From NCBI GenBank assembly GCA_965219995.1, contig CBDCOX010000002.1, positions 32,001 to 96,000 on the forward strand: a stretch of 64,000 nucleotides of DNA, in the 5' to 3' direction. Under the pieces are notes generated by a model. The model did not search any database, was not told where the DNA came from, and saw nothing but the letters and a program-made list of their open reading frames with translations. Shown piece by piece: positions 44,674-63,895 of this stretch. The stretch is from Candidatus Latescibacterota bacterium. GTDB taxonomy: Bacteria; Latescibacterota; UBA2968; GCA-2709665. The position numbers and the translations under genes were made by a program. How positions within the stretch are numbered: position 1 is the first letter of the stretch; every line of letters starts with the position of its first letter.

Positions 44674-44789
44674 CACCCTGAATATACCTTGCGCGACCGA
44701 GGGGTGAAAGTACAAAAGGACTGTGATTGGAGTGATTAAAACCTGATTAGCGTGATTAAGGCAAAGGCGGGTACAGGTCAAAAGCAACA

Positions 44790-44980
44790 AACATGGATGG
44801 ACAGGATGGACAGGATAAAACCAAACGAGAAGGTAAACCGGGTGGAAGCTGAGCGGCCAGGCTGCGCGGAACCGGTCATGAACGCCGACCCGGATTTCCG
44901 GACGTCCCAGCTGACCTGGTTTCTCGTACCGCCTTTTCCGGTCTTACGCCTTTATCCTGCCTGTCCTGTGCATCCATGTT
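44790..44980. repeat. Family A (GGACAGGAT-periodic) inverted pair
   Basis: + copy 44790-44819 AACATGGATGGACAGGATGGACAGGATAAA; - copy 44951-44980. Confidence 0.85.
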
Positions 44981-45026
44981 AAATCGTGTGTTGCTTCTTG
45001 GGTTGTCGGGTGTCGTCATTTCCGGT

Positions 45027-45410
45027 CTACCAGATGGTCTGTGCGTAATACGCCTGGATGATCGCATCGGAGGTGACGATGGGGCAGGCGTTCAGGCCGG
45101 CGGTGGCGACGATGGTCCGATCGGCGGGGTCCCGATGGTCCCAGTCCAGTTCCAGATTTCTGATCCATGTCCGGGCGCAGACGGGGAGGATTTCGACGCG
45201 GTCGACTTGTTCCAGTCTGTCCGTGAATTCCCGGATGGAAACCGGTATAACCAGTTGTTCTTTCTTGACCTTGATACCGATTTCCCATATCGATATCGCA
45301 CTGAGGGCAATCCTGTCGGCGTCCGCAATCGCCTGTGCGGCAGCATTCGACAGCCGATCTCGATCGAGCGTCCAGAATATGAGGGAGGAGGTGTCCAGGA
45401 GGACCATCAC
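45027..45410 (-). CDS. vapC: VapC PIN-domain toxin
   Basis: LLDTSSLIFW, SAISIWEI, HRDPADRTIVATA, VTSD. Confidence 0.93.
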   Translation of the reverse strand: MMVLLDTSSLIFWTLDRDRLSNAAAQAIADADRIALSAISIWEIGIKVKKEQLVIPVSIREFTDRLEQVDRVEILPVCARTWIRNLELDWDHRDPADRTIVATAGLNACPIVTSDAIIQAYYAQTIW

Positions 45411-45637
45411 GATTCCGTCCATTCATCTGTGGTCGGAAGATTGATGTCGTCGCGATAGATGACCTGGCCCGAAAGCGCGCCGAACACGTCGTCGACCGTC
45501 TTCTTTCTCGAAATCGGCTGAATGCGCAACACCGGGCGCCTGCGATCCGTGACGATCAACGACTCGCCGGATTCCTCAAGCTCGCGAAAGATGCGCAGCA
45601 TGTGCGCTTTCAGTTTGCTCTTGGAGATGGAATTCAT
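45407..45637 (-). CDS. Phd/YefM family antitoxin
   Basis: ISKSKLKAHMLRIFRELEESGESLIVTDRRRPV; overlaps the vapC start. Confidence 0.9.
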   Translation of the reverse strand: MNSISKSKLKAHMLRIFRELEESGESLIVTDRRRPVLRIQPISRKKTVDDVFGALSGQVIYRDDINLPTTDEWTES

Positions 45638-45659
45638 ACGATCTCCTTACGAAATAAAA

Positions 45660-45713
45660 ATGACTATAGTCATCACTATGGTCATAATATACATAAACAA
45701 GAAATACTGTCAA
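45660..45713 (-). promoter_or_regulatory. TA promoter with tandem palindromic operators
   Basis: Minus-strand TTGACA 45713-45708 and TATATT 45691-45686; ATGACTATAGTCAT palindrome plus an imperfect second copy, 45660-45685. Confidence 0.65.
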
Positions 45714-45757
45714 ATGAAACGACAGGGTATGACTAACGGGGACAAATCGAGAATTTC

Positions 45758-46252
45758 ACATGGGCGGACAGGATGAACAGGATATAGATCACAAACCTGC
45801 AATATCCAGTCATCCCTGCGTACGATTCATTCCGGTCTTGAAGGATTTTCCTCCTCACCACCTGAGCCCATTACGTCCCACCTGAACCGTGTTCTCGCAC
45901 CGCCTTTTTTAATTATACGCCTTTATCCTGCCTGTCCTGTGCATCCGTGTTCCACTGCATCAATTCTCGATGGTCATTCGCTACCAACCATTACCGACAT
46001 GGATGGACAGGATAAACAGGATAACATCCAAACCGGAAACACCAGGTCAAGCCAGCAAATCAATTAATCCTGCCGTTGCAGATCCTGATTCAGGCTTCAC
46101 GAGATCGATGTCGCACACTGCGTCAACGTGCTTCTAATGTACTACGGAGTCTCGTCATCAGCCGCAGACCGCACCCTGTTGTGTCCCGTCTGTATGTTTG
46201 TGATGTGATCTCCTGTTTTGCCTTTATCCTGTCCATCCTGTGCATCCATGTT
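45758..46252. repeat. Two consecutive family A inverted pairs
   Basis: +45758-45786/-45922-45951 and +45997-46024/-46223-46252. Confidence 0.85.
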
Positions 46253-46864
46253 TCATTCTTCTTTGCCAGGATCTTCGCCGGTTTTTTCCCATGCCTTCGT
46301 GAATGTCTCCGGCTCAACGCCGAGCGCATCGGCCACGCGGTTAATGTAGTTGAAGAAGCCGATGATCTGGATGGCGTCGTGGATGGACCGATCGTCGAAA
46401 CCGTGCTCGCGCAGCCGCTCGATATCCGCGGCGGTAGAGTCTCTCGGATCCAGGCTGAGCTTCTTCGCGAAGGCGCATAGCGCGCGGTCGGCGGGGGAGA
46501 GGGGGGCCCGGCGCCAGTCGGCGGCAACCAGATGCACCAGCCGGTCGGCCTCGCTGTCATCTTCAACGCCGAAATCCGCGGCGACCTCGGCACGGAGGTC
46601 GTGGGCGTGGGCGCGTATTCAGTAGACGCAACGGTTTGCGGCCGAAACGACCACGGCGAGCATCTCTCGCTGCGCACGGCTGAGCGGGGAGGGGCCGTGC
46701 ATCAACGCGCCGTAGAAATCCAGCGACGCCTTCATCGCGCGGGGGTTCTGGCTCATCACGGAAACAATGCCCCAGACGCGCCCCTCCCGCCCCATCGCGG
46801 CGTCATACTGCTGCTTCAACAAACCCGTCGCGGCCTCCGGAGGAATGACGTCGATATAGGGCAT
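46253..46864 (-). CDS. AhpD/carboxymuconolactone decarboxylase-like peroxidase-related protein, probable selenoprotein (CxxU)
   Basis: ORFs 46619-46864 and 46253-46537 are in one frame, joined through TGA 46621-46619: NRCVY-U-IRAH; C-terminal FFNYINRVADALG; hairpin just 3' of the UGA. Confidence 0.85.
46582..46601 (-). promoter_or_regulatory. Putative bacterial SECIS hairpin
   Basis: CGACCTC-CGTGCC-GAGGTCG starting 17 nt after the UGA; G at loop position 2. Confidence 0.65.
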
Positions 46865-46945
46865 CGCGGCCTCCTTCGCAACATGGATCAATGCGGAAAC
46901 GGCAAAACCAAAAAGGCAAGGTAAATTCAACAACACAAACCAACA

Positions 46946-47080
46946 AACATGGATGGACAGGATGGGCAGGATAAAAACCGTGAGAAACTAAGAAAATCGC
47001 TAAAGACACGAAAACCGCAAAGAACAGGTCAAATCAAAACTGCCAAACATGGATGGACAGGATGAGCAGGATAAAAACCG
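46946..47080 (+). repeat. Tandem family A doublet (left boundary of the inner island)
   Basis: + copies at 46946 and 47046; the block resembles 62791-62920. Confidence 0.8.
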
Positions 47081-47221
47081 CGAAAAAAGATAAAATCAGT
47101 CAAACCTGCGGTAAGGCACACTGGCTGTTCAAGTTGCCATCTCAAACTTTATTTGTCTTTGAGTATTCTGAGGATTGTCTTATGGAAAATACGGAAAAAT
47201 AAGGAGTTGGCACGTATAAAA

Positions 47222-47248
47222 ATGGCCCAGGGATTTGCCTGGGCCGTT
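47222..47248 (-). terminator. Putative terminator after the YjzC-like gene
   Basis: GGCCCAGG-GATTTG-CCTGGGCC hairpin with a U tail on the minus strand. Confidence 0.55.
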
Positions 47249-47277
47249 TAAGATCGCACATCTAAAGATCAATGCAA

Positions 47278-47478
47278 TCAACGTTTTCCATGCCCACTTT
47301 GATTCTTAGTACGGTCCACAAGTCGAAATTTCCAACCAGGACGTTGTGTTGGTGGCAAAGGTCTATCTATAATAGCAGTTATCTCAATTGCATTAGGGAC
47401 CTTACCACCAAGTGGTCCCACTTCCTGATATTGACCCGAAGCCTGAGCCAGCTCACCCGATCTTTGCAACCTAGGCAT
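47278..47478 (-). CDS. YjzC-like small protein
   Basis: GELAQASGQYQEVGPLGG..PLPPTQRPG..LVDRTK; GGAGG RBS. Confidence 0.8.
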   Translation of the reverse strand: MPRLQRSGELAQASGQYQEVGPLGGKVPNAIEITAIIDRPLPPTQRPGWKFRLVDRTKNQSGHGKR

Positions 47479-48009
47479 TGGAAAGTCCTCCAAATAAATT
47501 TGTCGTAAACAAAAACGGCATATTTATTAATGAGTTACGGGGGAATGGATATTGGGTTCTACGGGCTCACCTCCTTAACCCTTCCATTTGACCGTATCCT
47601 TGATTAGTGGTTCTTGCGCGGCTGCCGTCAACAGCCGCGCATCTTCTTACTTTAAAATAGCATTGTGTTCGCCAGAAGACAAACATTTAAATGAAAATTT
47701 ATCACAAAAACCCCCTCTTTTCGTACCATGTCAATGGCCTCAGAAGGTAGAGCTTCTGAGGCCATATCGTGAAGAGACTCAAAATTCAAATTCATTATCC
47801 GTATGTTACCGAATCGGAGCCCTTCTCTTTACTAACTTTACCGGATACAAAGGGTACGGGTATCGTTTTGGGTCCCCGACTGCCATCATCACGACCATAG
47901 GGTTGTGTATTTTGTTCTTTGACAGATCGCTCCCAACCCTCATTACCAGGCGCAGGCGCAGGTGTCGGTGCTTCCTTTGGATGATTCATTTTGGCCCCTT
48001 TCTGACTTA

Positions 48010-48822
48010 CTATGGCAGCACACTACTGGTGACTCGTTTTTGTCGAACTATACGTAAGCCCTCCTTTTGAGTAATTACTGCAATATCCACTGGACCCCCG
48101 ACACTTCGAACCCCAGAAGTAAAATGCATTAGCTTAGTAGTAGTTTCAATAAGAAATACTGAAAGATCGATACAATCTTGAAGAGGCAAAAAACCATAAG
48201 GTATAGAGACAGATAACGGATTCAAAATAGTTTGTTGTATATTTTGACATTGTTCATCTGTTAATGATAATAAGTCTCGTAACTGTTGCAATACTTGATC
48301 ACCCACGCCACCTAAAAGGTGAAAAGCATGAGTTGTGACTCCACCCCAACATAAACCAAAATCACCGTCCGCTGCGCGTATTTCTATGGGCTCTATATTT
48401 TCATTTGGAACATGTGTTAAATAGACTCGACCATGTCCTTCATTTTCATTATAACCGCCCACTAAAAAATAAATATGGCCGGGTGGGTTATTAGGTGCCG
48501 CTGAGGCCCAAGCATTATTAAAGAAATCTCGAAGCAATAAGGCAAAATTCAACACTGATAATCGTGGTTGAGTTCTAATATAGTTTTCAAATTCTGGTAA
48601 ATAACTATGTACCGTTCTTGGCGAAAGTGAATTTATGGCTCCCGCTCCATATGTCATGGCCCCAATATGACTTTGCTTCTTAGTGTATAGTAGCTTCATT
48701 GCATTATCATACGTAGAAGCAAATACCAAATCCGTATTAGGTTCTTGTGATGTAAATGTTGTACGACTATCTACCGCTAAGACAACACCTTCTGAAGCCT
48801 TAAAAGCAATTGCAAAGGACAT
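48010..48822 (-). CDS. Proteasome-beta/Ntn-hydrolase-like protein
   Basis: N-terminal S-FAIAFKASEGVVLAVDSRTT, FLVGGY, C-terminal VGGPVDIAVIT; AT-rich DNA. Confidence 0.7.
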   Translation of the reverse strand: MSFAIAFKASEGVVLAVDSRTTFTSQEPNTDLVFASTYDNAMKLLYTKKQSHIGAMTYGAGAINSLSPRTVHSYLPEFENYIRTQPRLSVLNFALLLRDFFNNAWASAAPNNPPGHIYFLVGGYNENEGHGRVYLTHVPNENIEPIEIRAADGDFGLCWGGVTTHAFHLLGGVGDQVLQQLRDLLSLTDEQCQNIQQTILNPLSVSIPYGFLPLQDCIDLSVFLIETTTKLMHFTSGVRSVGGPVDIAVITQKEGLRIVRQKRVTSSVLP

Positions 48823-48968
48823 CTCAAATACCTCTTAAATTTACCGTATCTTACAAAATAAAGCAAGTTTAAAACCACGCTTGATACGTTTAGTTATTAT
48901 CACTAATAGTTAAGTAGCAACCCTCAAAATATGAACTTCAAGATAAAATGTCAATAATTTAAACGACT

Positions 48969-49419
48969 TTAAACACACCCTCCCAAAACCCCCTCCTTCC
49001 GCCGATTGTACCGATAGCACGCCTCGGCCAGATACAGTTCCATCCACTTTAAGCTGTAGTGATGTTGAGTGCAGTAATACGCCCGTTTCACGGTTTCCCA
49101 GAACAACGCCAGCCGGCGCAACGGAGTCTCGCTGGGCCGATGATCGAAGTACCAATCCAACATCTTGAAGAAATTATGTCGAGTCGTGTGCAATCGCGTC
49201 CCCCGCTTAATCATCTCCTTCAAAGCCCCATAGACTGCTAGACTTACTCGTACCGATTCGGACCGTTACCCTTCCCCCGTGCTCGATCGCACCTACCAGC
49301 ATTGTCTTCTTCGTCCAGTATGCCCGGACTGATTTACTGTATCGCGGCTTTCCGCCCAGGTAAGTTTCACTGGCCTCGACTATACCGGTCAGCAATTCCC
49401 GACCTGCGACCCGTTGCAT
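48969..49419 (-). pseudogene. IS1595 family transposase relic
   Basis: Frame-broken fragments GIVEASETYLGGKPR..KTMLVGAIEHGG and FWETVKRAYY..HHYSLKWMELYLAEACYRYNRR; 5' part cut off by IS21. Confidence 0.8.
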
Positions 49420-49559
49420 CTGTTGCTGTTAATGATCGCCCATATGCGGCCAATGCGGGATCGCCCTAATGGGGCCACCTGGGATGCGATATAGGTTTCG
49501 GACTATCCGGCAACGGTTCTACCTTCTGATTGTCTCCCCGACAGTCAGGAGGGAAGGAC

Positions 49560-51107
49560 ATGGCCAACCGGAGGTTCGAGATGTATCAGATTCGCCAGGT
49601 ATTGACGCGTATGCGGTTGGGCGATTCGGATCGTGCGATCGCCCGTTCAGGGTTGATGGGTCGGCAGAAGGCCGGCGCGCTTCGTGACGTGGCAGGCCGT
49701 GAGGGATGGCTGGACGCTTCCAACGTGTTGCCCGATGATGCCACGCTGGTGCAGGTGGTTCAGGTTCCAACCTCGCGACCTCAGTCGGCCTCGTCGGTTT
49801 TGCCCTACCAGGACAAGGTGACAGCCTGGTGGCGTGAGGGTATCCGGGGTACCGTCATCCACCAGGCGTTGGTGGACACCTACGGCTATGCCGGCTCGTA
49901 TTCTTCCATCCGTCGTTTTCTCCAGCAGCTCAAAGACGCTCATCCCGACGTCACCACCGTGTTGGACTTCGATCCGGGCGACGTGGCGCAGGTGGACTTC
50001 GGGCGGGGTCCCACGATACAGGACGTCTTCACCCACCAGACCATCGCGACGTGGATCTTCGTGATGGTGCTGGCCTGGTCTCGCCACCAGTATGCCGAGA
50101 TCGTGCCGGACCAGAAGGTCGAGACGTGGCTTTCCTGCCACAGAAGCGCCTTCGAGTTCTTCGGCGGAGTCCCGGCACGCGTGGTGATCGACAACCCCAA
50201 AAACGCCATCACCAGGGCCTGCTACCACGATCCGGAGGTGCAGCGCGCCTACGGCGAGTGCGCCGAAGGCTATGGCTTCACCATCTCCCCGTGCCCCGTG
50301 CGAGACCCGAAGAAGAAGGGGCGCGTGGAGGCTGCCGTGAAGTATGTCAAGCGCAGCTTTGTTCCCCTGCGCCAGTTCCGTGACATCAGAGATGCCAACC
50401 GGCAGTTGCAGGACTGGATCCTGGGGGTGGCCGGTAACCGCATTCACGGCACTACCCACGAACGACCCCTGACACGCTTTGCACAGACCGAGCGCGAGTT
50501 CCTCAAGCCGTTACCCGCCATTCCACCTGAGCAGGCGGCCTGGGCCAAGGTGAAGGTTCACGGCGACTGCCACGTCCAGTTCGAGAAGTGTCGATACTCC
50601 GTGCCCTATGCCCTGGTGCGCCAACAGCTCTGGTTGCGGGCCAGCCCAAAAACCGTGAGGATCTACCAGAACCACAACATGGTGGCCGTTCACCTCCGTA
50701 AAAACACACCTGGTGCACGCGCGACCGTTACCGAACATCTGCCGCCAGAGGCGCGCGCTTTCCTGATGCGCGATCCACAATGGTGCCTCAAACAGGCACA
50801 GCGTATCGGTCCTTCCTGCCACCACCTCATCAAGACCCTCTTCTCCGATCGCGTGCTGGACAACCTCCGCGCTGCGCAGGGCATCATCCGACTTTCACAA
50901 CGCTACGGCGCAAGGCGCCTCGAGGCCGCCTGCGACCGCGCCCTGGCCTTTGACAACCCCCGCTACCGGAGTGTCAAAAGCATCCTCGAAAAAGGTCTGG
51001 ACCAATGCAAGCATCCAAATGAGACGTCCACAGCCCCACACACCCTCGCGTCAGCCTATACGGGACAGGGACGTTTTTGTCGCGATGCCACAACCCTCTT
51101 CAGCTAA
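49560..51107 (+). CDS. istA: IS21 transposase IstA
   Basis: PGDVAQVDFG, FFGGVP..DNPK, KGRVEAAV DDE motifs. Confidence 0.95.
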   Translation: MANRRFEMYQIRQVLTRMRLGDSDRAIARSGLMGRQKAGALRDVAGREGWLDASNVLPDDATLVQVVQVPTSRPQSASSVLPYQDKVTAWWREGIRGTVIHQALVDTYGYAGSYSSIRRFLQQLKDAHPDVTTVLDFDPGDVAQVDFGRGPTIQDVFTHQTIATWIFVMVLAWSRHQYAEIVPDQKVETWLSCHRSAFEFFGGVPARVVIDNPKNAITRACYHDPEVQRAYGECAEGYGFTISPCPVRDPKKKGRVEAAVKYVKRSFVPLRQFRDIRDANRQLQDWILGVAGNRIHGTTHERPLTRFAQTEREFLKPLPAIPPEQAAWAKVKVHGDCHVQFEKCRYSVPYALVRQQLWLRASPKTVRIYQNHNMVAVHLRKNTPGARATVTEHLPPEARAFLMRDPQWCLKQAQRIGPSCHHLIKTLFSDRVLDNLRAAQGIIRLSQRYGARRLEAACDRALAFDNPRYRSVKSILEKGLDQCKHPNETSTAPHTLASAYTGQGRFCRDATTLFS

Positions 51108-51127
51108 AAAAACGGGAGAACAACAAC

Positions 51128-51907
51128 ATGAACCCGATGCCCGAACTTGCCCCCATGCTCAAAAGACTGCGCCTGTCCGGCATCCTCGAGACACTGCCTG
51201 CCAGAAATCAGGAAGCCATCGACAACAAACTCGCTTACAGCGAGTTCCTCGCCCTGCTTGTCCAGGACGAGGTCGCACGCAGAGAACACAAAAAGTTCAA
51301 CCTGCGCCTGCGACGCGCGGGCTTCCGCGGCGAGAAAACCCTCGAGGGCTTCGACTTCGCCTTCAACCCCGCCATCAATCAGGCCTTCATCAAGGACCTG
51401 GCCACCTGTGCCTTCATCAAGGAAAAGGTCGCAATACTGATTGCAGGACCCTGCGGCACGGGCAAAAGCCACATCGCACAAGCCCTGGGACACCTCGCCG
51501 TCAGAGCCGGCTACGACACCCTGTTCACCACACAAACCAAGCTGTTGGGACAACTCCACGCCGCACGGGCGACAGGCACCTTCGAGCGGCGCTTCCACAA
51601 TGTTGTCAAAACACCGCTGCTCATCATCGATGACTTCGGCCTCAAACCCATGACGCCGCCACACGACGAGGACTTCCACGACCTCATCTCTGAACGCTAT
51701 GAACGGGCGGCTACCATCGTCACCTCAAACCTCGACTTCTCGGAATGGGTTCACGCCTTCCCGAATCGACTCCTCGGCGCCGCCACCCTCGACCGTCTCA
51801 GGCACGGCGCCTATCGCGTCATCCTCGACGGCGAAAGCTTCCGCGCACCTAAACCCTTACCACAATCACAAAAAAAACACCTTGGAAAGGAGGCCCAAGA
51901 GCACTAA
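51128..51907 (+). CDS. istB: IS21 helper ATPase IstB
   Basis: KTLEGFDF, GPCGTGKSH, LLIIDDFG, TSN, LDRLRH. Confidence 0.95.
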   Translation: MNPMPELAPMLKRLRLSGILETLPARNQEAIDNKLAYSEFLALLVQDEVARREHKKFNLRLRRAGFRGEKTLEGFDFAFNPAINQAFIKDLATCAFIKEKVAILIAGPCGTGKSHIAQALGHLAVRAGYDTLFTTQTKLLGQLHAARATGTFERRFHNVVKTPLLIIDDFGLKPMTPPHDEDFHDLISERYERAATIVTSNLDFSEWVHAFPNRLLGAATLDRLRHGAYRVILDGESFRAPKPLPQSQKKHLGKEAQEH

Positions 51908-52011
51908 TTATATGCCCCTTCCGAAACACTAAAATCGACACTTCCAGGTGGCTCCATTACGCCGATCATGGGTGGCCCCATTAGGGCGATCCGTGACAAG
52001 GAGTAAAGGCC

Positions 52012-53277
52012 GTGGCTAAGACAGTAATGATATTCGGGGCAGGTGCAACGTTACCATTTTTCTGTCCACCCATTACAACCAGTAAGTTGACTGATTTGGT
52101 GCAGAATAGGCGGAAATGGAAAGACCTTCTGGATAGGTATAACACAGAAATGTGTCGCGCGAGTTGCCTTTTGGATTGTAAGGTCAAATGGGAGCCCGTA
52201 TCGCACCTAATCCAGCGGGCGTTCGAAGTAAAAGGGTGCGTCAACTTTGAGGAACTCATCGGGTTTTGTGATCTGTATTCATCGTACGTGATTCACGATA
52301 GTTACCTTGCAAACAGTGGAATTGGAATTGAAACAAAACGTCAGCACGATCTCTTGAGGTTCTTCAACGTTAGACAGCCAAATCAAGACTGTCAATACTG
52401 GCAGATGGTACCCTTTTTGTTCAGACAAATCATCGCCGAAGCAATCGAAGAATGGGTTGGTCAATATCGATCAAAAAACTACTGTAGCCTCCTGATCCGG
52501 CAAAAGGAATTGCTTTTGGGGCAACTTAGGCAGGGCGATCTGTCATGCTACTCTTTTAACTATGATGACGTCTTGCTTCAGACGGTTTCGGCTGGAAAGT
52601 TGCCCTTGCAGACGGGCTTCGTTTCCGGACGCTTTTGCGGAGAGAAATTCCTTAAAGCGCCATCTATTCTGGCGTTTTTGCACGGCCATGCCAGCTGGGC
52701 TCTGGACAACTGCGGTATGAGGGAATTTGGATCAATCTCTGATGCCAACCGTTGGCGAATCGGGCGTCTCTTCACCGATGATGCGCCTCCGATGGAATTC
52801 GTCGATGAATCTGGCGCCTACGATTTCAATTCATTTCTAACCACTGGCTTGGATAAGGACCCCTCATTCAACCGCAAACCCTATTGTGCGTACCACCAAA
52901 GACTTGCCTACGACCTTATGTCTGCAGATCGACTCATCGTGGTTGGATACTCGTTCAGGGACCAACACGTTGATAGGTTTCTGCTGAACTTTCTTGATCT
53001 CAAACCGACGACAAATAAAGTCATGGTCATTGACCGGTGGGATTATGATATTGATCAACAATCCGAGTTCACTAATCCGTTCGGATCGCTGCGCCGCGTA
53101 CTGGCCAAATTTGACGGTACGAGCATTCCCTTTACGCAGGGTGGCAACGGGCGAATAAACAACGTCGGCTATGGGCCTTTTTGTGGTTCGATTTGGATTT
53201 ACAAGAAAGGTTACGCCGACTTTCTTGTCGAGTGGGAGACCGTTCTCGATGAATGGCAATCGTCGGATAGTTCGTAG
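52012..53277 (+). CDS. SIR2-like domain protein (putative antiphage NADase)
   Basis: IFGAGA, SFNYD, LHG, VGYSFRDQHV motifs. Confidence 0.8.
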   Translation: MAKTVMIFGAGATLPFFCPPITTSKLTDLVQNRRKWKDLLDRYNTEMCRASCLLDCKVKWEPVSHLIQRAFEVKGCVNFEELIGFCDLYSSYVIHDSYLANSGIGIETKRQHDLLRFFNVRQPNQDCQYWQMVPFLFRQIIAEAIEEWVGQYRSKNYCSLLIRQKELLLGQLRQGDLSCYSFNYDDVLLQTVSAGKLPLQTGFVSGRFCGEKFLKAPSILAFLHGHASWALDNCGMREFGSISDANRWRIGRLFTDDAPPMEFVDESGAYDFNSFLTTGLDKDPSFNRKPYCAYHQRLAYDLMSADRLIVVGYSFRDQHVDRFLLNFLDLKPTTNKVMVIDRWDYDIDQQSEFTNPFGSLRRVLAKFDGTSIPFTQGGNGRINNVGYGPFCGSIWIYKKGYADFLVEWETVLDEWQSSDSS

Positions 53278-53440
53278 TTGAACGACCCGTTTTAAAAAGG
53301 TCGGCAGTTGCCTGTTTGTCATACCGCCATGCACAATTTCGGATTGAATGCCGAAATCGTCGTTTTGTGATTGGTCGATCCAATTGGATTTCTACGTACA
53401 GATGAGGCACGATCAAAATGTGAGTGAGATTGTGCTTCGC

Positions 53441-55948: not shown

Positions 55949-56054
55949 TGCACTAACTCCTTTCTTCCTCAACCCGCAGACAGATGTGGATTTCGGCTGC
56001 GTCTGTCGCTGCCGACCATCTGGCCGTTCCTGCGTGCGAATCTCGAAACAGGTC

Positions 56055-56208
56055 CAGATTGGAATCTGCAGAATATACAAGAAATCAATAAATGTGTCAA
56101 TAACAAAAGGTGAAAACGCCTTTTATCAAACGCTTCTGCTCAAGATTTGGCCTTGGAAAGCCTTCTATGTTTTTATTGCTTGACATTCGTTCCCCGATTG
56201 CCTAAATT
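56055..56208. promoter_or_regulatory. Divergent sigma70 promoters with a palindromic operator candidate
   Basis: Minus TTGACA 56100-56095 / TATATT 56077-56072; plus TTGACA 56180-56185 / TAAATT 56203-56208; palindrome CAGATT-GG-AATCTG 56055-56068. Confidence 0.6.
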
Positions 56209-56221
56209 CTGTGCCAGCGAT

Positions 56222-56602
56222 ATGCGACGGCGACCTGAATCAGAACGACTCTACGAGATTGTAGGGCAGAAGGTAGAACGTAGGCGGCGTGAGGCTAAGC
56301 TTACGCAGGCCCAATTGGCCGGGCTATGTGGCCTCGCGCGTGGTTCCATTGCCAACATTGAGAGCGGAAACCAGCGTCCAACCATTCATACGCTATGGGA
56401 TCTCGCGGAGGCGCTTAAGGTCGATATGCGCTCGCTTCTGCCTTCGCCTGAAGAATTCCTGCCGGATGTGGGGGGTACTGCGAGGCCGGTAATCACGGGT
56501 AGGTTACAGAAGGTGGCGGGAGAGAGTCGAAATCAGATTGCTTCCTTCATCGCTAGTAGCCGAGCGGAGGTCATGCCAGATGTCTCTGGAGAGGATGGCT
56601 GA
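56222..56602 (+). CDS. XRE family HTH regulator (CapH-like)
   Basis: RREAKLTQAQLA..GLARGSIANIESGNQRP..L..LAEAL. Confidence 0.9.
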   Translation: MRRRPESERLYEIVGQKVERRRREAKLTQAQLAGLCGLARGSIANIESGNQRPTIHTLWDLAEALKVDMRSLLPSPEEFLPDVGGTARPVITGRLQKVAGESRNQIASFIASSRAEVMPDVSGEDG

Positions 56603-57083
56603 GGCGCTACTCGCAAATGCAGGCGTGAATTCCGCACCGGTTGACTTGAATCGAGTGGCAGAGCACTTGTGCATAAAGATTCAGTACGTCGACCTCGGTG
56701 AGGATTGTTCGGGCGTGCTCGTCCGTAATGGGGACCGTGCCGTGATTGGTGTCAATGAGGATCACCATTCGAATCGCCAGCGGTTTAGTATCGCGCATGA
56801 GATCGCCCATTTCGTTCTACATAGGGGCGATACGTACATCGACAAGGGGTATCGCGTACAATTTCGCGACCTTGAATCAGGCTCTGGGACAAAACGGGAA
56901 GAGATGGAGGCTAATGCACTTGCTGCGGCATTGCTAATGCCTGCCGCTTGGGTAAGGCGTGCCTTCCTCCTGAAGCCTTTTGATTTGGCTGAAGACGATG
57001 TACTTAAGATGCTTGCTGATAATTTTAACGTGAGCACTCAAGCGATGACCTACCGACTCATGAAACTACGAATGATCAGCTGA
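56580..57083 (+). CDS. ImmA/IrrE family metallopeptidase (CapP-like)
   Basis: RQRFSIAHEIAH, EMEANALAAALLMP, FNVSTQAM.YRL. Confidence 0.92.
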   Translation: MSLERMAEALLANAGVNSAPVDLNRVAEHLCIKIQYVDLGEDCSGVLVRNGDRAVIGVNEDHHSNRQRFSIAHEIAHFVLHRGDTYIDKGYRVQFRDLESGSGTKREEMEANALAAALLMPAAWVRRAFLLKPFDLAEDDVLKMLADNFNVSTQAMTYRLMKLRMIS

Positions 57084-57172
57084 AGGCCTGTTACTACTTT
57101 CACCCGCCTGCCAATCCGCTGCCGGACAATTCCCCGCTAATCTTTCTTCACTCAGCCGATTCTCCGATACGT

Positions 57173-59788
57173 TTAGCACAGGCTTGTTTGAAGGAGACTA
57201 GTCGGTTTTCTTTCCGTCTCCTGCCCATTCTGTCTATCCCCGTCGCCCCACACCCGCCGTATCGCCGCCTGAATCCTCTTCTCCATTCGCTTTATTAACT
57301 TCTTGTTCGCATCCAAGATGGCTTGTTCGCCCTTGATTTCGGTGACGATTTCTTCTTGTGTCTCGGCAGCGGGTAGGGGAATTCTGTAGCTTTCCAGGAC
57401 GGTTTTGGGAACCCGTTGTAGTCCTCCAGTTCCGGTCATCTGTGGTGTTGCCCATTTTCGAAATTTGGGCGTAGCGACGCTGAGGTATATCCATTCAGGG
57501 ATAACTTCCCGTTCCGGTCTCAGCACGTAAAACTCGCTCGAACCAAACCCGATTCCGTTGCTCAAGCCGTTGGCGATTCCCGCTTTGCCATTCTCAAAAC
57601 AGGGAGTCACCTTTGCAATAAGTACGTCGTCGTCCCTGAAGTAAGTATAGCTGGTGCCAACTTCATTTAAGCGCTTACAATGTCTCGGTGAAAAATACAT
57701 ACTGTTTGAGCCCAGATCAGCCATCGGCACAAAAGAAACGAATCTTGTGCCGTCGAATGCATTCAATTCCGATTTTCGAGGATTTAGATTGCAGACTTCC
57801 CCGATTTCCACCATCGGCCAATCGGGGTCGATGGGAATATGCGGTCGGTAGTTGTCGATGACTGCGCGCGCACCGTCGATCACCCGCTGATACCCCTTGA
57901 TCTCCGCCACAATCTCCCGCTGCACATCCAGAGGCGGTAGGGGAAAACTGAAGCTCGAATACTGTCTCGCGTTAATATTGGTAAGCGTGCCTGTCTTCGA
58001 GTTACTGTCTATCCACTCGCGCCACGTCTCTGACTTGGTTACGTGATAAACAAATTCAGGAACGGCTTTAGTCGGATCGATACGGAAACGAATCAAGTAA
58101 CCAGCGTATTGATAATTTCCTTGCTGATTTCCGTGCAGGTAGGTACGTCCAACGGAGCCCGAGCGTGCGATAAGTAGGTCACCAGGTTTCAAGAAGAGGT
58201 CTGGCTCGATTAGTGAAGGCGAAACTGAATCGCTTGAACGGAGTTCTCCGTCGTCTGTAATGTCAGTTATCCGCACATATCGTACTTTGTTATCGAATGT
58301 AACTTTGCGTGCCCCGGAACCGTACGTCGGTTTGCCCAAGATAATTTCGCCAAGGTTTACCCAGGCGTATTTTGTATCGTTGGTTCTGTATTCCCTATAC
58401 CTCTCCCCACTCAGGTTGTACTCCCCACCAGCCGCGATTTTTGACTTTGGGACGATGAGTGGCACCCCTTGCTGAATGAGTTGCTCCAGGATTGACTGAT
58501 CGGCGGCGGGGTGTGGTTCGCCTTTATCCTGCCCATCCTGTCCATCCATGTTCCCAACATTGCCAATGTACTCCTTCATGGCCTCCAAGGTCCGCGGGAG
58601 GTCGTTCAGATCGATCGGTCTGCGCTGGGCGCCGAGGTCGAAGCCGTCATTTTCGACTTTGAAGAAGGCGATCTGATCGGTCCGTTTCGCCAGGGATTTG
58701 TCGAGGATCAGGATTGACGTCTTGACGCCGGAGTAGGGATTGAAGACGCCCGCGGGGAGGGAGACGACGGCGACCAGATAGTCCTCGACCAGCATCTTGC
58801 GCAGTTGTTTGTGGGCGTTTTGGCTCTGGAAGATGATGCCCTCGGGGACGATGATCCCGGCGCGGCCGGATGGCGTAAGATGTTCGGCCATGTAGTCCAC
58901 GAACAGGACTTCGCTGCGTTTGGATTTCACGGAAAAGCGGTTGTGCGGGCGGATGCCGCCCTTCGGCGACATGAACGGCGGATTGGCCAGAATGACGTCG
59001 GCGTATTCGTTCCAGCGGTCCTCGCTGGTGAGGGTGTCGTATTCGACAATGTGCGGTTTCTGAAAGCCGTGCAGGTACATGTTTACCAATGACAGTCGGA
59101 CCATATCCGGTGAGATATCGTAGCCCTTGAAGTTTGCGGTGAGTTTTTCCCGTTCGTCAGGTGTGAGCGTACTGTTTCCGTCGTCGTCGGTATTGGCCTC
59201 GACAATGTGCTTGTACGAGGAAATGAGAAACCCGGCAGTGCCGCAGGCCGGGTCCAGAATGGTTTCGTTTTTCTTCGGGTCGATCACCGCGACGATGAAG
59301 TCGATGATGTGGCGCGGGGTGCGGAACTGACCGGCGTCGCCCTGCGAACCCAGGACCGAGAGCAGGTACTCGAAGGCATCCCCGAGGCGCTCGCTGTGGT
59401 CGTACGTGAACTCGTCGATGACCTTCAAAAAGGCGCGGAGCGTTTCCGGGTCGCGATAGGGGAGGTAGGCGTTGTTGAAGATGTCCCTGAAAAGCGGCGG
59501 TATGCCGGGATTCTCGGGCATTCGGTCAATGGCTTCGGCGTAGACATTGAGCATCTCATGTCCGCCCAGGCCGGAACGCATCAGCTTCGGCCAGCCGAAC
59601 CGGGCAAATTCACCGGCGAAGAATTTCCGCGTGCCGCCCAGCTCCTCGCTCTTGGCGTCCATGTCGTCCATGAACTTGTAGATCAACGCGATCGTGATCT
59701 GCTCGACCTGGCTCTTGGGATCCGGCACCTTCCCGACCAAAATATCGCGGGCGGTATCTATACGGCGTTTCGTTTCAGCGTCTAACAT
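57173..59788 (-). CDS. Type I-like RM N6-adenine methyltransferase fused to specificity (S) domains
   Basis: GQFRTPRHI, ILDPACGTAGFL, NPPF; two TRD+CR units ending PLPPLDVQREIV and PLPAAETQEEIV. Confidence 0.92.
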   Translation of the reverse strand: MLDAETKRRIDTARDILVGKVPDPKSQVEQITIALIYKFMDDMDAKSEELGGTRKFFAGEFARFGWPKLMRSGLGGHEMLNVYAEAIDRMPENPGIPPLFRDIFNNAYLPYRDPETLRAFLKVIDEFTYDHSERLGDAFEYLLSVLGSQGDAGQFRTPRHIIDFIVAVIDPKKNETILDPACGTAGFLISSYKHIVEANTDDDGNSTLTPDEREKLTANFKGYDISPDMVRLSLVNMYLHGFQKPHIVEYDTLTSEDRWNEYADVILANPPFMSPKGGIRPHNRFSVKSKRSEVLFVDYMAEHLTPSGRAGIIVPEGIIFQSQNAHKQLRKMLVEDYLVAVVSLPAGVFNPYSGVKTSILILDKSLAKRTDQIAFFKVENDGFDLGAQRRPIDLNDLPRTLEAMKEYIGNVGNMDGQDGQDKGEPHPAADQSILEQLIQQGVPLIVPKSKIAAGGEYNLSGERYREYRTNDTKYAWVNLGEIILGKPTYGSGARKVTFDNKVRYVRITDITDDGELRSSDSVSPSLIEPDLFLKPGDLLIARSGSVGRTYLHGNQQGNYQYAGYLIRFRIDPTKAVPEFVYHVTKSETWREWIDSNSKTGTLTNINARQYSSFSFPLPPLDVQREIVAEIKGYQRVIDGARAVIDNYRPHIPIDPDWPMVEIGEVCNLNPRKSELNAFDGTRFVSFVPMADLGSNSMYFSPRHCKRLNEVGTSYTYFRDDDVLIAKVTPCFENGKAGIANGLSNGIGFGSSEFYVLRPEREVIPEWIYLSVATPKFRKWATPQMTGTGGLQRVPKTVLESYRIPLPAAETQEEIVTEIKGEQAILDANKKLIKRMEKRIQAAIRRVWGDGDRQNGQETERKPTSLLQTSLC
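58523..58552 (-). repeat. Family A repeat embedded in frame in the methyltransferase gene
   Basis: AACATGGATGGACAGGATGGGCAGGATAAA on the coding strand, read as NMDGQDGQDK. Confidence 0.85.
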
Positions 59789-59805
59789 CGAAGAACCTCA
59801 GACTT

Positions 59806-60235
59806 ACATGGATGGACAGGATGAACAGGATAAATTCAAGAACCCAAAACATCGGATTCAGCCAACGCATCAACGATTCCAGCCGTTGCAGTGGTATATA
59901 TCATCCAGAGCTTGTTGCTGAAAACTGCCTTGTAATTGACGGTTCGAGAATGCAGAACTTCGTTGAGAAAGAGTCTTGTTTCCTTGTGATTTTCAATGTA
60001 TATTTCGTTTGTCTGGACGTTTTATTAGCTCTTGCAAATTGACTAAAATGTCTTATTGCAGGCCCCACGGGTTTCGGCTCGTGGGATTTTTTTTGTATTT
60101 GAATGAATCGTAGGAAGAAACGAGTTGAGGTTTATAGCTTATATGCCGGTTTTCGGGGTGGTTTTCCTTTGTGTTTTTGTGCCTTTTGTGGCCATTTTGT
60201 TTTTTTCTTGCCTCTGATCCTGTGCATCCATGTTT
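59806..60235. repeat. Family A inverted pair with an internal family B unit, between the M-S and R genes
   Basis: +59806-59834; half copy -60217-60235; TTTGTGTTTTTGTGCCTTTTGTGGC at ~60168-60192. Confidence 0.75.
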
Positions 60236-60236
60236 C

Positions 60237-62765
60237 CTAAGCAGCAAACTGATTTAGCGGGACGTAGTCCTTGACGTATTCGGGGACGAGTTTGCGGTAT
60301 TTCTCCGGTACGGCGCCAAGGTCCTTCATTGAGAGAACGGGGTTGGTGGCCAGGCCGGTGTAGTCCCGGTTTTCGATGATGTGACGTACCTGGTCGCTGG
60401 TGACGTACGCTTTGAAGTAGTTCTTGATCGCGGGGATGGACTCGACCTGTTCGGGGGTATAGTCGGCCACGAACTTCCCGAATTCCTCTTCCAGCATCTC
60501 ATCTTTGGATTTAAACCGCGGAATCAGCCCAAACACCTTTTCCAGGATCTCCCTGAGCGTGATGCGACGGTCCACGGCTGCGGCCTTGCGCAGCTTTTCG
60601 AGCGTGTAATACTCCTCGGGCCGGTCGAAGACTTCCCGGTTGACGTAGTCGATGACCCGGTCCCACTGCCCCGCCTCCACGGCCTGCGCGATGACGTCAT
60701 CCTTCCGAACAGCATCCTCGAATTTCTCGAAGAACATCCGATCGATCCTCATCCCTTCCGCTCCGACGGCCTCGACCTTGATGGTCGACAGGATGTCCCG
60801 ACCCAGGTACTCGTAGGCACCAGCGTCGGCGACGGGAGTATTCGGATCCTCTTTTTCGATAGCAACCTTGTAGGAAGGCAGTCCCAACACTTCGTCGTAG
60901 TTGAACTCGGTTTCGAAGTATTCGCAGTTGGCGAAGAAGTCGAACAGCTTGAACTCGGTCTTATCCGGCTCGTCTACGCGTTCCGCGATGGCCGGATTCT
61001 GCAACTGTTCGAGGAAGTTATGCTTCCTTGTACCTCGCCCCTTGATCTGGATGAAGTCGGTGGGCGAGAAGATCGGGCGAAAGAGACCGAGATTAAGGAT
61101 GTCGGTACAATCATATCCCGTTGTCATCATGCCGACCGTCACACAAACCCGCGCTTTGCTCGTCAGATACTCAGGGAGGAAGTTCCCGGATCCGAGCAGG
61201 TTATTGTTGCTGAAATTAACGGTGAACCGCTGGGCATCCGAAATCTGCGATGTGACCTGTACGGCGAAGTCCGACTTGTATCTGTCCGGAAACATGACGT
61301 GAGCCATCAGGTTGAGGATTTGAGTCAGTTTTGCAGCGTGTTTTTGACTGACGGCGAAGACGATGGACTTGCCGATTTCGCCGCTGACGGGGTCACGAAG
61401 CGCGTTTTCGAGGAACGTCTTGCAGAAGAGCTGGTTGGTCGCGTCGGAATAGAATCGCTTCTCGAACTCACGCTTTTTGTAAGCCTCTTCCTGTTCTTCA
61501 CCCTCATCGTCCGTAAATGATACGACGAATCCCTGTTCGGAGAGCAACTTTGTTGTCACTTTCGTTCGCGCGTCAACGACCGTCGGGTTGATCAGATAGC
61601 CGTCCTTCACGCCGTCCAGCAGGGAGTATTTGAATGTGGGCTGCCCGCTTTCGCACCCAAATGTACGGTAGGTGTCCAGGAGCAAACGGCGTTCTGCTTC
61701 GCGCGGGTCCCGCGTGGTCGGGCTGGTCCCGTCGAATCCTCTCAGATAGTCCCGGGGAGTTGCGGTCAGGCCCAGTTTGTACCCGACGAAGTAGTCGAAT
61801 ACGGACCGGGCGTTGCCACCGATGGACCGGTGGGCTTCGTCGGAGATGACGAGGTCGAAGTCGGTGGGCGAAAACAGCGATTGGTACTTATTGTTGAACA
61901 GCAGCGACTGGACCGTGGTGACGACGATCTCCGCGGAACGCCAGTCGTCCCGCCGTTCCTTGTAGATCACCGTTTGGAAGTCAGCCGAAAGCAGGGCGGT
62001 GAAGACCTTCCTCGCCTGTTCCTCGAGTTCCAGCCGGTCGACGAGAAACAGCACACGAGAGGCATTGCCGGAGCGCAGAAAGAGCTTGATCACAGCCGCG
62101 GACACCAGGGTCTTGCCGGTTCCGGTGGCCATTTCGAACAGGAACCGGTCTTTCCCGTCCTTCACGATCCTCTGAAGCGTATGAACGGCCCGGAGTTGGT
62201 AGGGGCGGAGGAAATTCAATCCGTTGGACTTGATAAAGGCGGGGCGTTCGGCTTCGTTCGTCCACGCCGCTTCCGAGGCATAATTCGGCCGCTGGGTGAG
62301 TACGATGTAATCCTCACTGACGGACTCATCGACCAGGCGCTGAGGGTTGGGCTGGACTTTATTGTAGTTGGTTACGGAGTCCGGCGTCGGGAAGGAAGTG
62401 ATGACGTACGGATTGCCTCTCTCGAGGTCCCAGAAGTAATGCAGATTTCCGTTCGACAGGATGACGAAGCGGCAGTTCTGCGAGCGGGCGTATTTTCGTG
62501 CCTGTTCTTTGCCCACCAGCGGGTTTTTGTCCTCCGACTTGGCCTCCAGGACGATCAGCGGGAAGCCTTTTTCGTCAAGGAGGAGAAAGTCTACGCGACC
62601 TGTCGCGTTCTCAAAGTCGTCGCCCAGTGCGTCCAGGTCGGCCTTCTTCAGCTTGACGCTCGCCTCGACGCGAATGTTGGCAGGCTTGCCTTCATTGTCG
62701 AAGAACCGCCACCCCGCCGCCTCGAGCAGTTTGTTGATCTTGATCCTCGCCGCTGCTTCGTTCAT
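60237..62765 (-). CDS. hsdR: Type I restriction subunit R (HsdR-like SF2 helicase-nuclease)
   Basis: VDFLL..LEAK nuclease motif, QARKYA, MATGTGKT, DEAH, GLTATP, TTGYD, QIKGRGTR. Confidence 0.9.
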   Translation of the reverse strand: MNEAAARIKINKLLEAAGWRFFDNEGKPANIRVEASVKLKKADLDALGDDFENATGRVDFLLLDEKGFPLIVLEAKSEDKNPLVGKEQARKYARSQNCRFVILSNGNLHYFWDLERGNPYVITSFPTPDSVTNYNKVQPNPQRLVDESVSEDYIVLTQRPNYASEAAWTNEAERPAFIKSNGLNFLRPYQLRAVHTLQRIVKDGKDRFLFEMATGTGKTLVSAAVIKLFLRSGNASRVLFLVDRLELEEQARKVFTALLSADFQTVIYKERRDDWRSAEIVVTTVQSLLFNNKYQSLFSPTDFDLVISDEAHRSIGGNARSVFDYFVGYKLGLTATPRDYLRGFDGTSPTTRDPREAERRLLLDTYRTFGCESGQPTFKYSLLDGVKDGYLINPTVVDARTKVTTKLLSEQGFVVSFTDDEGEEQEEAYKKREFEKRFYSDATNQLFCKTFLENALRDPVSGEIGKSIVFAVSQKHAAKLTQILNLMAHVMFPDRYKSDFAVQVTSQISDAQRFTVNFSNNNLLGSGNFLPEYLTSKARVCVTVGMMTTGYDCTDILNLGLFRPIFSPTDFIQIKGRGTRKHNFLEQLQNPAIAERVDEPDKTEFKLFDFFANCEYFETEFNYDEVLGLPSYKVAIEKEDPNTPVADAGAYEYLGRDILSTIKVEAVGAEGMRIDRMFFEKFEDAVRKDDVIAQAVEAGQWDRVIDYVNREVFDRPEEYYTLEKLRKAAAVDRRITLREILEKVFGLIPRFKSKDEMLEEEFGKFVADYTPEQVESIPAIKNYFKAYVTSDQVRHIIENRDYTGLATNPVLSMKDLGAVPEKYRKLVPEYVKDYVPLNQFAA

Positions 62766-62790
62766 TCTGATATCTTTTCAGAAATTAACC

Positions 62791-63132
62791 AACATGGATG
62801 GACAGGATGGACAGGATAAAAACCGCAAGAAACTACGAAAACAACAAAAGCCACAAAAGGCACAAACTGGGCAGATCAAAACATCCAACATGGATGGGCA
62901 GGATGGGCAGGATAAAACCACACAAAACAACGAAAACACCGAGAGCCACAAAATGCACAAAGGGCACAAACAGGGGAAAACCAGGACCACTAAAGAATGT
63001 ACTGGAAGAACTGTATGAGTTGATTGTGTCTCTTCCTCAGCAGCGACTCCCGATCTGATCTGCGTGATCTTGGCCGTTGAACCTCTTTATTGTTCGCCTG
63101 CTCTTATCCGGTCTGTCCTGCTATGTCCATGG
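62791..63132. repeat. Family A doublet interleaved with family B units, plus a degenerate inverted copy
   Basis: +62791, +62887, GCCACAAAAGGCACAAA units, - copy 63104-63132. Confidence 0.8.
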
Positions 63133-63150
63133 TCCCCTGTTTCAAGCGCT

Positions 63151-63369
63151 TTACTCGAACAGCGTTCGTGGTAGCCCCGATTGCCGAATGATTGCCATCA
63201 GTGTCCCTTTTCGTAGTTCCTTGTGGTCAGGAACCGGTACAGTGATCGTACTCTCGGACGTGATCCTCTGCATGACGACATGGCTGCTCCTGCGCCGGAC
63301 TTCGGTAAATCCGTGGTCCGCGAGTATTTCACAGGTTTCGCGTCCCGACAATACCCGAAGTCTAACCAA
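63151..63369 (-). CDS. hicA: HicA family toxin
   Basis: LSGRETCEIL..GF..R..SH..TVPVP.H.EL..GTL..IIRQSGL. Confidence 0.88.
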   Translation of the reverse strand: MVRLRVLSGRETCEILADHGFTEVRRRSSHVVMQRITSESTITVPVPDHKELRKGTLMAIIRQSGLPRTLFE

Positions 63370-63583
63370 TGGCAACCTCCACCTGGGTTACGTACACTTC
63401 CTCGTGCAGGCGCTGCTGAATCTCAGTATCTGAGGCCGTTTCCAGGAACAACTCCAACGCCTCCTTCAGGTTTCCCCTTGCTTCAGAAACGGTTCCACCC
63501 TGACTCGCGATGTCCACTTCAGGGCACAGGGCAACGTATCCATCGCCTTCGCGTTCTATAATTGCAGTCAACTTTCTTGTCAT
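63362..63583 (-). CDS. hicB: HicB family antitoxin
   Basis: AIIEREGDGYVALCPEVDIASQGGTVSEARGNLKEALELFLE. Confidence 0.92.
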   Translation of the reverse strand: MTRKLTAIIEREGDGYVALCPEVDIASQGGTVSEARGNLKEALELFLETASDTEIQQRLHEEVYVTQVEVAIG

Positions 63584-63735
63584 CGCAAGCTCCCGTCGTG
63601 AGGATTTCCTTGTTTGACGCTTTCCTTCCTCCTCCGCTTTTGCAGTTGCCATTCATCACAGCCGTTTCCCGCCGTTATGATGTTGTCTGATTTTCGTTCT
63701 TCGACTTGGTTCTTCCCGTTTTTTAGCTTTCTGTT

Positions 63736-63895
63736 TTTATCCTGCTGATCCGGTGTATCCATGTTGTCCGGTTTTGATCTTTCGGTTTGGTTCTTCCCCG
63801 CTGTTGTCCCATGTTTTGGTTTTCTGCCTTTATCCTGTCCATCCTGTATATCCATGTTCCCCTGTATCAATCCTCGATGGTCCTTCGCTACCACC
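63736..63895 (-). repeat. Family A doublet at the right boundary of the island
   Basis: - copies 63736-63765 and 63829-63858; the flank to 63895 matches 45952-45988. Confidence 0.8.

Follow-up and report, generated by a model that had tools for sequence, protein, structure and literature searches.

In Neisseria, mosaic repeats—dRS3/NIME, the Correia elements and the minimal mobile elements—border variable gene slots, and genes are exchanged there without a resident integrase. On Acinetobacter plasmids, toxin–antitoxin (TA) and accessory modules lie between pdif sites of ~28 bp, which alternate in orientation and are served by XerC/XerD. Here, we describe a chromosomal locus that shares traits with both. 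It lies in a stretch of 64,000 nucleotides from a Candidatus Latescibacterota bacterium (assembly GCA_965219995.1, contig CBDCOX010000002.1, positions 32,001 to 96,000; hereafter the window), in which a repeat of 27–30 bases, AACATGGATGGACAGGATGGACAGGATAAA, accumulates in the interval between lptE and a NUDIX hydrolase gene. We call this repeat M; its core is ATGGATGGACAGGATGGACAGGATAAA, mostly with AAC in front. An earlier note on the window had taken the interval for an integron-like cassette array in which the repeats serve as recombination or insertion sites. We consider it moderately probable that M is the conserved core of a repeat family of the type of miniature inverted-repeat transposable elements (MITEs), and that it acts as a recombination substrate of the general machinery in this array.

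With the intergenic mosaic elements of Neisseria, M shares the position at the borders of variable slots between conserved genes and the lack of a resident integrase. It differs from them in sequence and taxon, the exchange in Neisseria is driven by transformation, and the M core is shared across phyla. The likeness to pdif consists of small TA and accessory modules between sites of ~28 bp with alternating orientation, with an enzyme—if there is one—acting in trans; also, the outer ...CCATGTTAAAT of a single M copy resembles the consensus XerD arm. However, M does not, on inspection, bear the two dyad-related 11-bp arms with a 6-bp spacer, it is chromosomal, and most of its copies flank ordinary genes.

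Integrons are called to mind by a repeat 3′ of many units, by the AAC/GTT outer bases, by possible hairpins and by a TA-rich cargo. The analogy, which the earlier note had drawn with attC in particular, is nevertheless not supported: the genome holds no integron integrase (IntI), neither attI nor Pc was seen, and the units bear promoters of their own, are of mixed orientation and are bordered by a repeat that is dispersed. The attC sites are imperfect palindromes of 57–141 bp with R″/L″...L′/R′ boxes; M has the outer AAC/GTT, and on inspection RYYYAAC fits only about 3 of 14 copies.

To repetitive extragenic palindromic (REP) elements, BIMEs and REPINs, M is similar in being intergenic, high in copy number, often arranged in inverted pairs, conserved within the lineage and a landing site for mobile elements; in one congener, a group II intron sits directly past M. 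It differs from the REPIN/RAYT systems in that it is not a palindrome and has no GTAG/CGTC tag, both judged by inspection, and no RAYT gene is present in the genome. The tags of REP elements are described in PMC3733652. M itself was found neither described nor printed in the literature searched; the additional files of that article, on terminal inverted repeat (TIR) and REP families, might contain it.

Motif M and the mobile elements that carry it

Matches to the 30-mer with ≤3 mismatches number nine in the window and none in 100 shuffles, and the 27-mer core matches with ≤5 mismatches at 13 places, all within 44793–63855. A search with an nhmmer profile, built from 111 genomic matches and with copies accepted at E ≤ 0.01, yields 14 window copies and, in addition, a half copy at 60217 on the minus strand (E 0.062). 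The 16 copies listed in the earlier note are hence reduced to these 14, the weak one, and one at 63104 on the minus strand that appears in neither the mismatch nor the profile search; here, only the eye makes out a degenerate copy, at ~63095–63130. By mismatch and profile searches, positions 1–44700 contain no M copy, in line with the earlier note, which had seen no full copy there. On inspection, M is a direct 9-nt repeat without self-complementarity. No Rfam family covers it in the window or in 18 loci of other phyla.

The genome of the window (G000) consists of one 5.43-Mb contig and one 9.6-kb contig and is 98.6% complete. It contains 111 copies of M at ≤5 mismatches and 113–121 by profile, all round the chromosome. 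With 103 of 117 genomic copies outside the array, intergenic and beside ordinary genes, M is not specific to the array, and the finding that the earlier note had named as speaking against its own reading, a motif spread through intergenic DNA of the whole genome, is largely observed. By a crude gene caller, 112 of the 117 copies are intergenic, and among the five inside genes only the copy in the fused hsdM–hsdS frame sits deep in frame. The AACATGG end of M adjoins a stop codon in 51 copies (median distance 26 nt) and a start codon in 61 (median 54 nt). Genes flanking M outside the array (164) are alike to other genes in length, GC content and codon score (Mann–Whitney U test, p 0.16, 0.93 and 0.58).

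The array is nonetheless a genuine cluster: 14 of the 117 copies fall within 19.2 kb, against a mean maximum of 4.2 and never more than nine in 5000 random intergenic placements. The next clusters (6, 5, 4 and 4 copies) are near chance, with a placement maximum of ≥5 in 31% and of ≥6 in 6%. The probability that mis-assembly or chance alone produced the cluster is next to negligible. In favour of it, short-read contigs from public runs break at M copies; against it, none of the 5000 placements reaches 14, and the syntenic locus holds 7–27 copies in all 14 congeners, which are independent assemblies and several of them single-contig. Certain "joints" listed in the public-run contigs were dismissed as M junctions and assigned to repeat cross-mapping, because their sides measure 20–33 nt with foreign letters in between.

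Outside the array, M is found within mobile elements. BLAST extension from each M copy leads to a sharp left boundary ~30–35 nt upstream, with tails that are subfamily-specific. The M-bearing elements are non-coding, 120–260 bp long, and have TIRs CCTGAATAATTCA and 4-bp YTAR-like target duplications. Family A, a 255-bp element with the ends CCTGAATAATTCAC / GTGAATAATTCACC, is present in 15 full copies in G000, nine of which show—by eye—direct repeats of 3–6 nt (TAG, TTAG, CTAG and others); seven copies occur in G010 and one in G001, while other congeners have diverged relatives only. In total, a MITE end lies ≤50 nt upstream of 38 of the 117 M copies, compared with 156 of 5000 control 50-mers (3%).

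Insertion polymorphism with empty sites is seen at three sites, all of them outside the array. For one family A copy of G010, which is flanked by a CTAT duplication, the corresponding site in G000 is cleanly empty. A second M-bearing element, this one in G000 (~250 bp), is cleanly missing from G001, the one relative aligned there, and a third of about the same length is missing from all four relatives aligned (G010, G001, G013 and G002). An autonomous insertion sequence (IS) that matches these elements survives in G013: it measures 1.69 kb, has ~20 copies (~20 ends matched) and the left end CCTGAATAATTCAC, agrees with the MITE over the first 14 nt, and is flanked by CTAG/CTAT/TTAG duplications. 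Its transposase of 454 amino acids (aa) matches PF13701 (DDE_Tnp_1_4) at E 1e-156; we take this IS and its ends to be of the IS1380 family. A tblastn search found no gene for a transposase of this type in G000, nor does any pair of MITE ends enclose a gene there.

TIRs and target duplications in family A, its relatives and those 38 copies, presence and absence between species and the matching autonomous IS in a congener are all as for MITEs, in this case presumably IS1380-derived. The differences are that the M core lies outside the IS ends, that the array copies are without ends, and that this core turns up again in many phyla, combined with other spacers. M would accordingly be the 27–30 bp core of widespread non-coding intergenic repeat elements, whose intact representatives in the genus are MITEs. 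Their mobility would have depended on a DDE_Tnp_1_4 transposase acting in trans, which is still present in relatives and missing from this genome, and old insertions of this type would have laid down the scaffold of dispersed M copies.

A different IS was considered as the MITE parent and set aside. It has five copies of 1.56 kb in G000 (C2:1604258–1605817 and four more), with a DDE_Tnp_1 transposase, the TIR CCTCAATGTGAAAT and TTAG/TTAA/CTAA duplications, and a family A MITE is only 12 nt away from one of the copies. With its TIR CCTCAATG, it shares only CCTnAAT and the target type with the MITEs, and the G013 IS fits better.

Beyond the species, M occurs at ≤2 mismatches in 14 of 14 congeners (7–50 copies, compared with 87 in its own genome), in one of seven genomes of other genera of the family and in two of 19 of the next family. 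The exact 24-mer ATGGATGGACAGGATGRRCAGGAT was matched in species-representative genomes of at least eight phyla, in at least 111 stretches overall. Among the matches listed are Acidobacteriota, Chloroflexota, Planctomycetota, Verrucomicrobiota, Gemmatimonadota and Latescibacterota as well as Burkholderiaceae, Syntrophobacteraceae and Desulfuromonadales (Proteobacteria, Desulfobacterota). In one Latescibacterota locus (L018), the M copies are spaced as in the G010 array. In the loci with the exact 24-mer, M often forms both arms of a palindrome of 90–200 bp, (A)ATTMAC-M...spacer...M′-GTKAATT—one such element folds with a z score of −13.7—and a convergent M pair ≤200 nt apart is present in 39 of 80 loci examined (manual count). 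A phage as vector of M was rejected on a single match among 2.9 million viral contigs.

Gene-content differences at direct copies of M

DNA and protein comparison recovers the array backbone in 14 of 14 congeners as PALP–NUDIX / vapBC / (hicB-like) / (higA) / ahpD / variable / hicAB / lptE. The order of the units is stable across the 14 species and their orientation is mixed, with higA and others on the opposite strand. A type I restriction–modification (R-M) system occupies the variable slot in G000, G001, G008, G012 and G013. The lptE–NUDIX interval is a genus-wide hot spot of small self-contained units—vapBC, hicAB, higA, a probable AhpD selenoprotein, GxxExxY, type I R-M and others. Across the 14 loci, M is present in 84 of 160 gaps between called genes; a co-oriented M lies ≤60 nt past the stop of 42 of 192 array genes, and an inverted M ≤150 nt before the start of 46. 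M without transposon ends stands at about half of the junctions, typically with one copy past a stop and an inverted one ahead of the next start.

In the window, the left part of the array is built from convergent pairs, whose arms are, by inspection, 27-bp near-perfect repeats 160–430 bp apart. Pair 1 has its left arm beside the NUDIX start (44788..44822, plus strand, E 9e-10) and its right arm 45 nt past the vapC stop in the orientation of vapC (44948..44982, minus strand). Pair 2 extends from a plus-strand copy upstream of vapB (45756..45787) to a minus-strand copy (45919..45950), after which 41 nt of the lptE 3′ end are repeated. The left arm of pair 3 is at 45996..46027 (plus strand), and the minus-strand copy at 46220..46252 directly abuts the ahpD stop codon (TGA AAC ATGG), as had been noted before. 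By an automatic rule, 10 of 14 species have this copy at the corresponding site; for the vapC-side copy, the number is 12 of 14.

Farther right follow two tandem modules on the plus strand: M–72 nt–M at 46944..47079 (copies at 46944 and 47045), upstream of ahpD, and M–62 nt–M at 62789..62919 (copies at 62789 and 62885), upstream of hsdR. They form the left and right direct repeats of a 16-kb island. Within it, a plus-strand copy stands upstream of hsdM (59802..59834), and the minus-strand half copy directly past the hsdR stop (60217..60234). All window copies lie in gaps, as stated in the earlier note, with one exception: the minus-strand copy at 58520..58551 is read in frame inside the fused hsdM–hsdS open reading frame (ORF) and encodes the linker GNMDGQDGQDK. 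Three further minus-strand copies accompany the right border—the degenerate one ~20 nt past the hicA stop (63095..63130), one between lptE and hicB (63733..63764, E 2.7e-4) and one ~30 nt past the lptE stop (63826..63857).

Comparison of the lptE–NUDIX interval between species, as the earlier note had proposed, does reveal differences by whole gene units that are bounded by direct M copies. In four hand-checked indels, two direct M copies or M–spacer–M modules stand against one in another species. The first is the ~16-kb island of G000 between the modules at 46944–47079 and 62789–62919; in compact species, a single module joins the ahpD-side and the hicA-side flanks. In the second, higA of G006 lies between two reverse-complement copies of M (rcM); at the corresponding place G011 has only one rcM, and the flanks are collinear to either side. 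The third is rcM–hsdR–rcM in G008 versus one rcM in G010, with no homology past the ~29-bp repeat. In the fourth, a 2.56-kb segment with a group II intron and higA lies between two rcM in G008 versus one in G012. A related change is found in G014, where the interior of a convergent pair measures 560 nt with an ORF, not 60 nt, and the change starts and stops at the ATAAA ends of M.

A noisy automatic scan, which serves as a rough check and missed the higA case, returned 34 clean indels; at least one breakpoint is ≤40 nt from M in 24 of them, both are in nine and none in 10, against a baseline of 20% of non-genic positions within this distance. No p-value is attached to the scan, because the events are not independent and are often the same deletion seen from several genomes. 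The claim that M is a recombination or insertion site for cassettes hence gains from the variable array and the four indels, and loses from the fact that only about half of the gaps contain M.

These indels raise the question of an enzyme. It is improbable that M is a dedicated site-specific recombination site, at which an enzyme from another locus would capture and excise cassettes, as with attC/IntI or pdif and XerC/XerD. Such a site would explain why the breakpoints of all four indels are exactly at direct M copies, why the array copies have no transposon ends and why M is constant at orthologous sites. The orientation of M also alternates around small TA-type modules as with pdif sites, its outer bases AAC...GTT are those of the attC R-box ends, and convergent pairs fold. 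However, no match to the integron integrase TIGR02249 exceeds the cut-off in the whole genome, and the only two tyrosine recombinases (PF00589; C2:2161056 and C2:3164521) are encoded at 2.16 and 3.16 Mb, far from the array. M also lacks, on inspection, the dyad symmetry for a tyrosine-recombinase core. Furthermore, the bulk of the copies sits beside ordinary genes, many array gaps are without M, and the units keep a stable order in mixed orientation and have their own promoters—vapBC bears a sigma70-like one inside the unit (45713–45684, TTGACA-16-TATATT). Finally, the divergence of hsdR between species (88–94% aa) is in the same range as that of NUDIX, which fits vertical descent with losses.

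Enzymes of other classes do not track M either. The genome has no match to Y1/HUH transposases including RAYT (PF01797), in a search whose control was positive in 6 of 14 known genomes; the co-occurrence of M with HUH genes, which the earlier note had proposed to test, is thus not seen. GxxExxY genes occupy an array slot in G008, G010, G012 and G013, and the N-terminus MDKQDGQDK is read from M in G008, the only one inspected. Their family, TIGR04256, occurs in 32 of 41 relatives, some of them from genera in which M was not detected; in G003 and G009, which do carry M, no member was found. M is nearby at 3 of 12 GxxExxY loci, and the single GxxExxY gene of G000 is 9 kb from the nearest M. Because there is neither linkage nor co-occurrence with M, GxxExxY genes and four-helix-bundle genes were rejected as its enzyme; of the link to GxxExxY drawn in the earlier note, the array units with an M leader in four relatives are what stands.

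We therefore favour general-machinery recombination, in view of the missing integrase and Y1 genes, the distant tyrosine recombinases, the GxxExxY genes that do not follow M, the promoter of vapBC and the divergence of hsdR. Unit loss—and probably gain—would occur by recombination between direct M copies, either through general recombination or through replication slippage, with no need for a dedicated integrase.

Several points weigh against this reading. A site-specific enzyme would account for all four exact indels just as well, and these indels are presence/absence comparisons between species. At the hsdR junctions, the repeats measure only ~29 bp with five differences, which makes them a poor RecA substrate. 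Among the array copies of M, 1 of 14 has an IS1380-type end, which is chance level; the ends of the G013 IS contain no M, so that M lies inside the MITE as a module and is not the terminal binding site of the transposase. Gene calls outside the window stem from our own crude codon-usage caller (4117 genes, 86% coding). The exact 24-nt identity across phyla is unaccounted for by repeat recombination. Also, at three orthologous array sites, the pairwise identity of M is 0.93, 0.78 and 0.79, compared with 0.28–0.59 in the non-coding and 0.64–0.69 in the coding DNA next to it; M being better kept than its flanks requires selection or gene conversion, and decaying selfish relics would not show this. 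Given short, imperfect repeats, array copies without ends and a constrained M, a dedicated enzyme and a host cis-function both retain some probability. The three readings—repeat substrate, M-specific enzyme and host cis-function—are mutually compatible.

Constancy of M

A letter-perfect non-coding sequence of 24–27 nt over many phyla is unusual. The constancy of M across phyla and at orthologous sites is most likely due to binding by some protein. M might be mainly a selected host cis-element—a protein-binding site or, in inverted pairs, a long RNA hairpin that insulates or processes the transcripts between units—with MITEs as mere carriers and indels as by-products, which we hold to be possible and yet doubtful. 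Conservation across phyla and relative to the flanks at orthologous sites is in line with such a role, and so is the proximity to stop and start codons at the medians given above. The convergent pairs of the window can indeed fold as single-stranded DNA, as the earlier note had assumed for its head-to-head pairs: 44780–44990 reaches −46 kcal/mol (z −5.5) and 45990–46260 reaches −45 kcal/mol (z −4.2). Moreover, M is tolerated as an in-frame linker between the methylase and specificity parts in all five species with the hsdM–hsdS system, partly changed in G001.

Against a cis-element speaks that M shows no bias towards transcription: in gaps between tandem genes, 43 copies are co-oriented with it and 45 opposed. 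No Rfam family matches, promoter-like and terminator-like sites do not coincide with M, and G001 is without the vapC-side copy with no visible consequence. The copy number, furthermore, varies from 7 to 87 between congeners, as for selfish repeats. The DnaA box, the CsrA site, a promoter and dif were compared with M by eye only and are a poor fit.

A further possibility, to which we assign a low probability, is that M is recognised by a DNA enzyme or binding protein that acts in trans and is common to at least eight phyla, with MITEs that hitch-hike with the site. If so, the M-flanked TA pairs, R-M systems, GxxExxY nucleases and probable AhpD selenoprotein would be portable modules, comparable to integron cassettes or pdif modules but chromosomal and without an integrase. 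An enzyme that specifically binds M would amount to a new gene-capture system; if there is no M enzyme, the locus would be a clean natural example of dispersed repeats as recombination anchors. M delimits precisely where defence and TA genes differ between species of one genus and is therefore a testable handle on gene exchange at integrase-less hot spots. Among annotated proteins, it accounts for a class of spurious extensions at the N-terminus (MDGQDGQDK...), besides one real in-frame linker.

Genes of the array and neighbouring repeats

The gene names that the earlier note had given to the cargo are borne out by Pfam. The conserved left border is the NUDIX hydrolase gene (44224..44790, minus strand), which is found in 14 of 14 species; the vapBC unit of a PIN toxin and a Phd-type antitoxin (45027..45637, minus strand) is found in 13 of 14. 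The conserved right border is the 3′ end of lptE (63888..64000, minus strand), which continues to 64385 in the genome, and next to it lies the hicAB unit (63151..63652, minus strand; HicA by Pfam). Together with the neighbouring M, 41 nt from the lptE 3′ end (63858–63900) are duplicated at 45950–45996, between vapB and ahpD, and G010 has several repeats of the unit of lptE 3′ end and M.

The AhpD-like (CMD) gene (46253..46936, minus strand) contains an in-frame TGA at 46616–46618, which is the second position of a CxxC motif, read C-V-Y-U. In 13 of 14 congeners, too, gene calling splits it into two ORFs; the TGA thus seems to be conserved, and the product is probably a selenoprotein.

The island of ~15.7 kb (47080..62788) is absent from compact congeners. 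Besides unknown ORFs, it contains an IS21-type element (49423–52004), with istB and an istA that bears rve and the Mu-transposase C-terminal domain; 95–96% identical copies of this element are found in G010 and G001 and partial copies elsewhere in G000. To the right follow a SIR2-like ORF, the ubiquitin-like set of DUF6527, ThiF–DUF6791 and Multi_ubiq genes (54095–56080) and a divergent pair of helix-turn-helix (HTH) and M78 peptidase genes (56147–57083). The region 52012–57083—the ORF with a weak SIR2_2 match, DUF6527, ThiF with DUF6791, Multi_ubiq and HTH plus M78—represents a candidate defence set. The type I R-M genes close the island with hsdM–hsdS, the fused methylase–specificity ORF (57173–59788), and hsdR (60237–62765).

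The group II intron of G008 (Rfam RF02003/RF00029, with a reverse transcriptase ORF of 426 aa; L014:2338–4899) begins directly after the ...CCATG end of M, and a second copy, at ~23752–25032 of the array, likewise follows M on the map. As both copies follow an M, their position suggests that M may be the homing site of the intron.

In G015, upstream of a GxxExxY gene (L159:1328–1458), the 9-nt unit of M forms a run with at least 11 overlapping profile matches at 9-nt steps; thus, the M unit can behave as a microsatellite. The GxxExxY gene of G000 is preceded by another 9-mer run, of the CACAAAGAC type. In a genome-wide listing, the tails 3′ of M in this genus are markedly T-poor on the M strand and made of short A/C/G-rich modules (CACGAGAAAACGAG, CTACGAAACACGCG, CCACAAAAGGCAC and CAGGATTNN); a strand of this kind has hardly any stop codons, whatever the frame.

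The genus is rich in several intergenic repeat families. A further repeat of ~160 bp, unrelated to M (L172:11222–11384; in G000 C2:3297222–3297384), has dozens of copies in each of four congeners at 85–96% identity. A 3.4-kb duplicate at C2:4.05 Mb was rejected as an IS and is a gene duplication. In the runs X5–X7, labelled sponge and marine metagenome, contigs cover NUDIX, vapBC, ahpD and IS21 and, in part, the R-M genes (window 44001–64000); they are mostly 90–99% alike to the window, which points to related strains in such samples.

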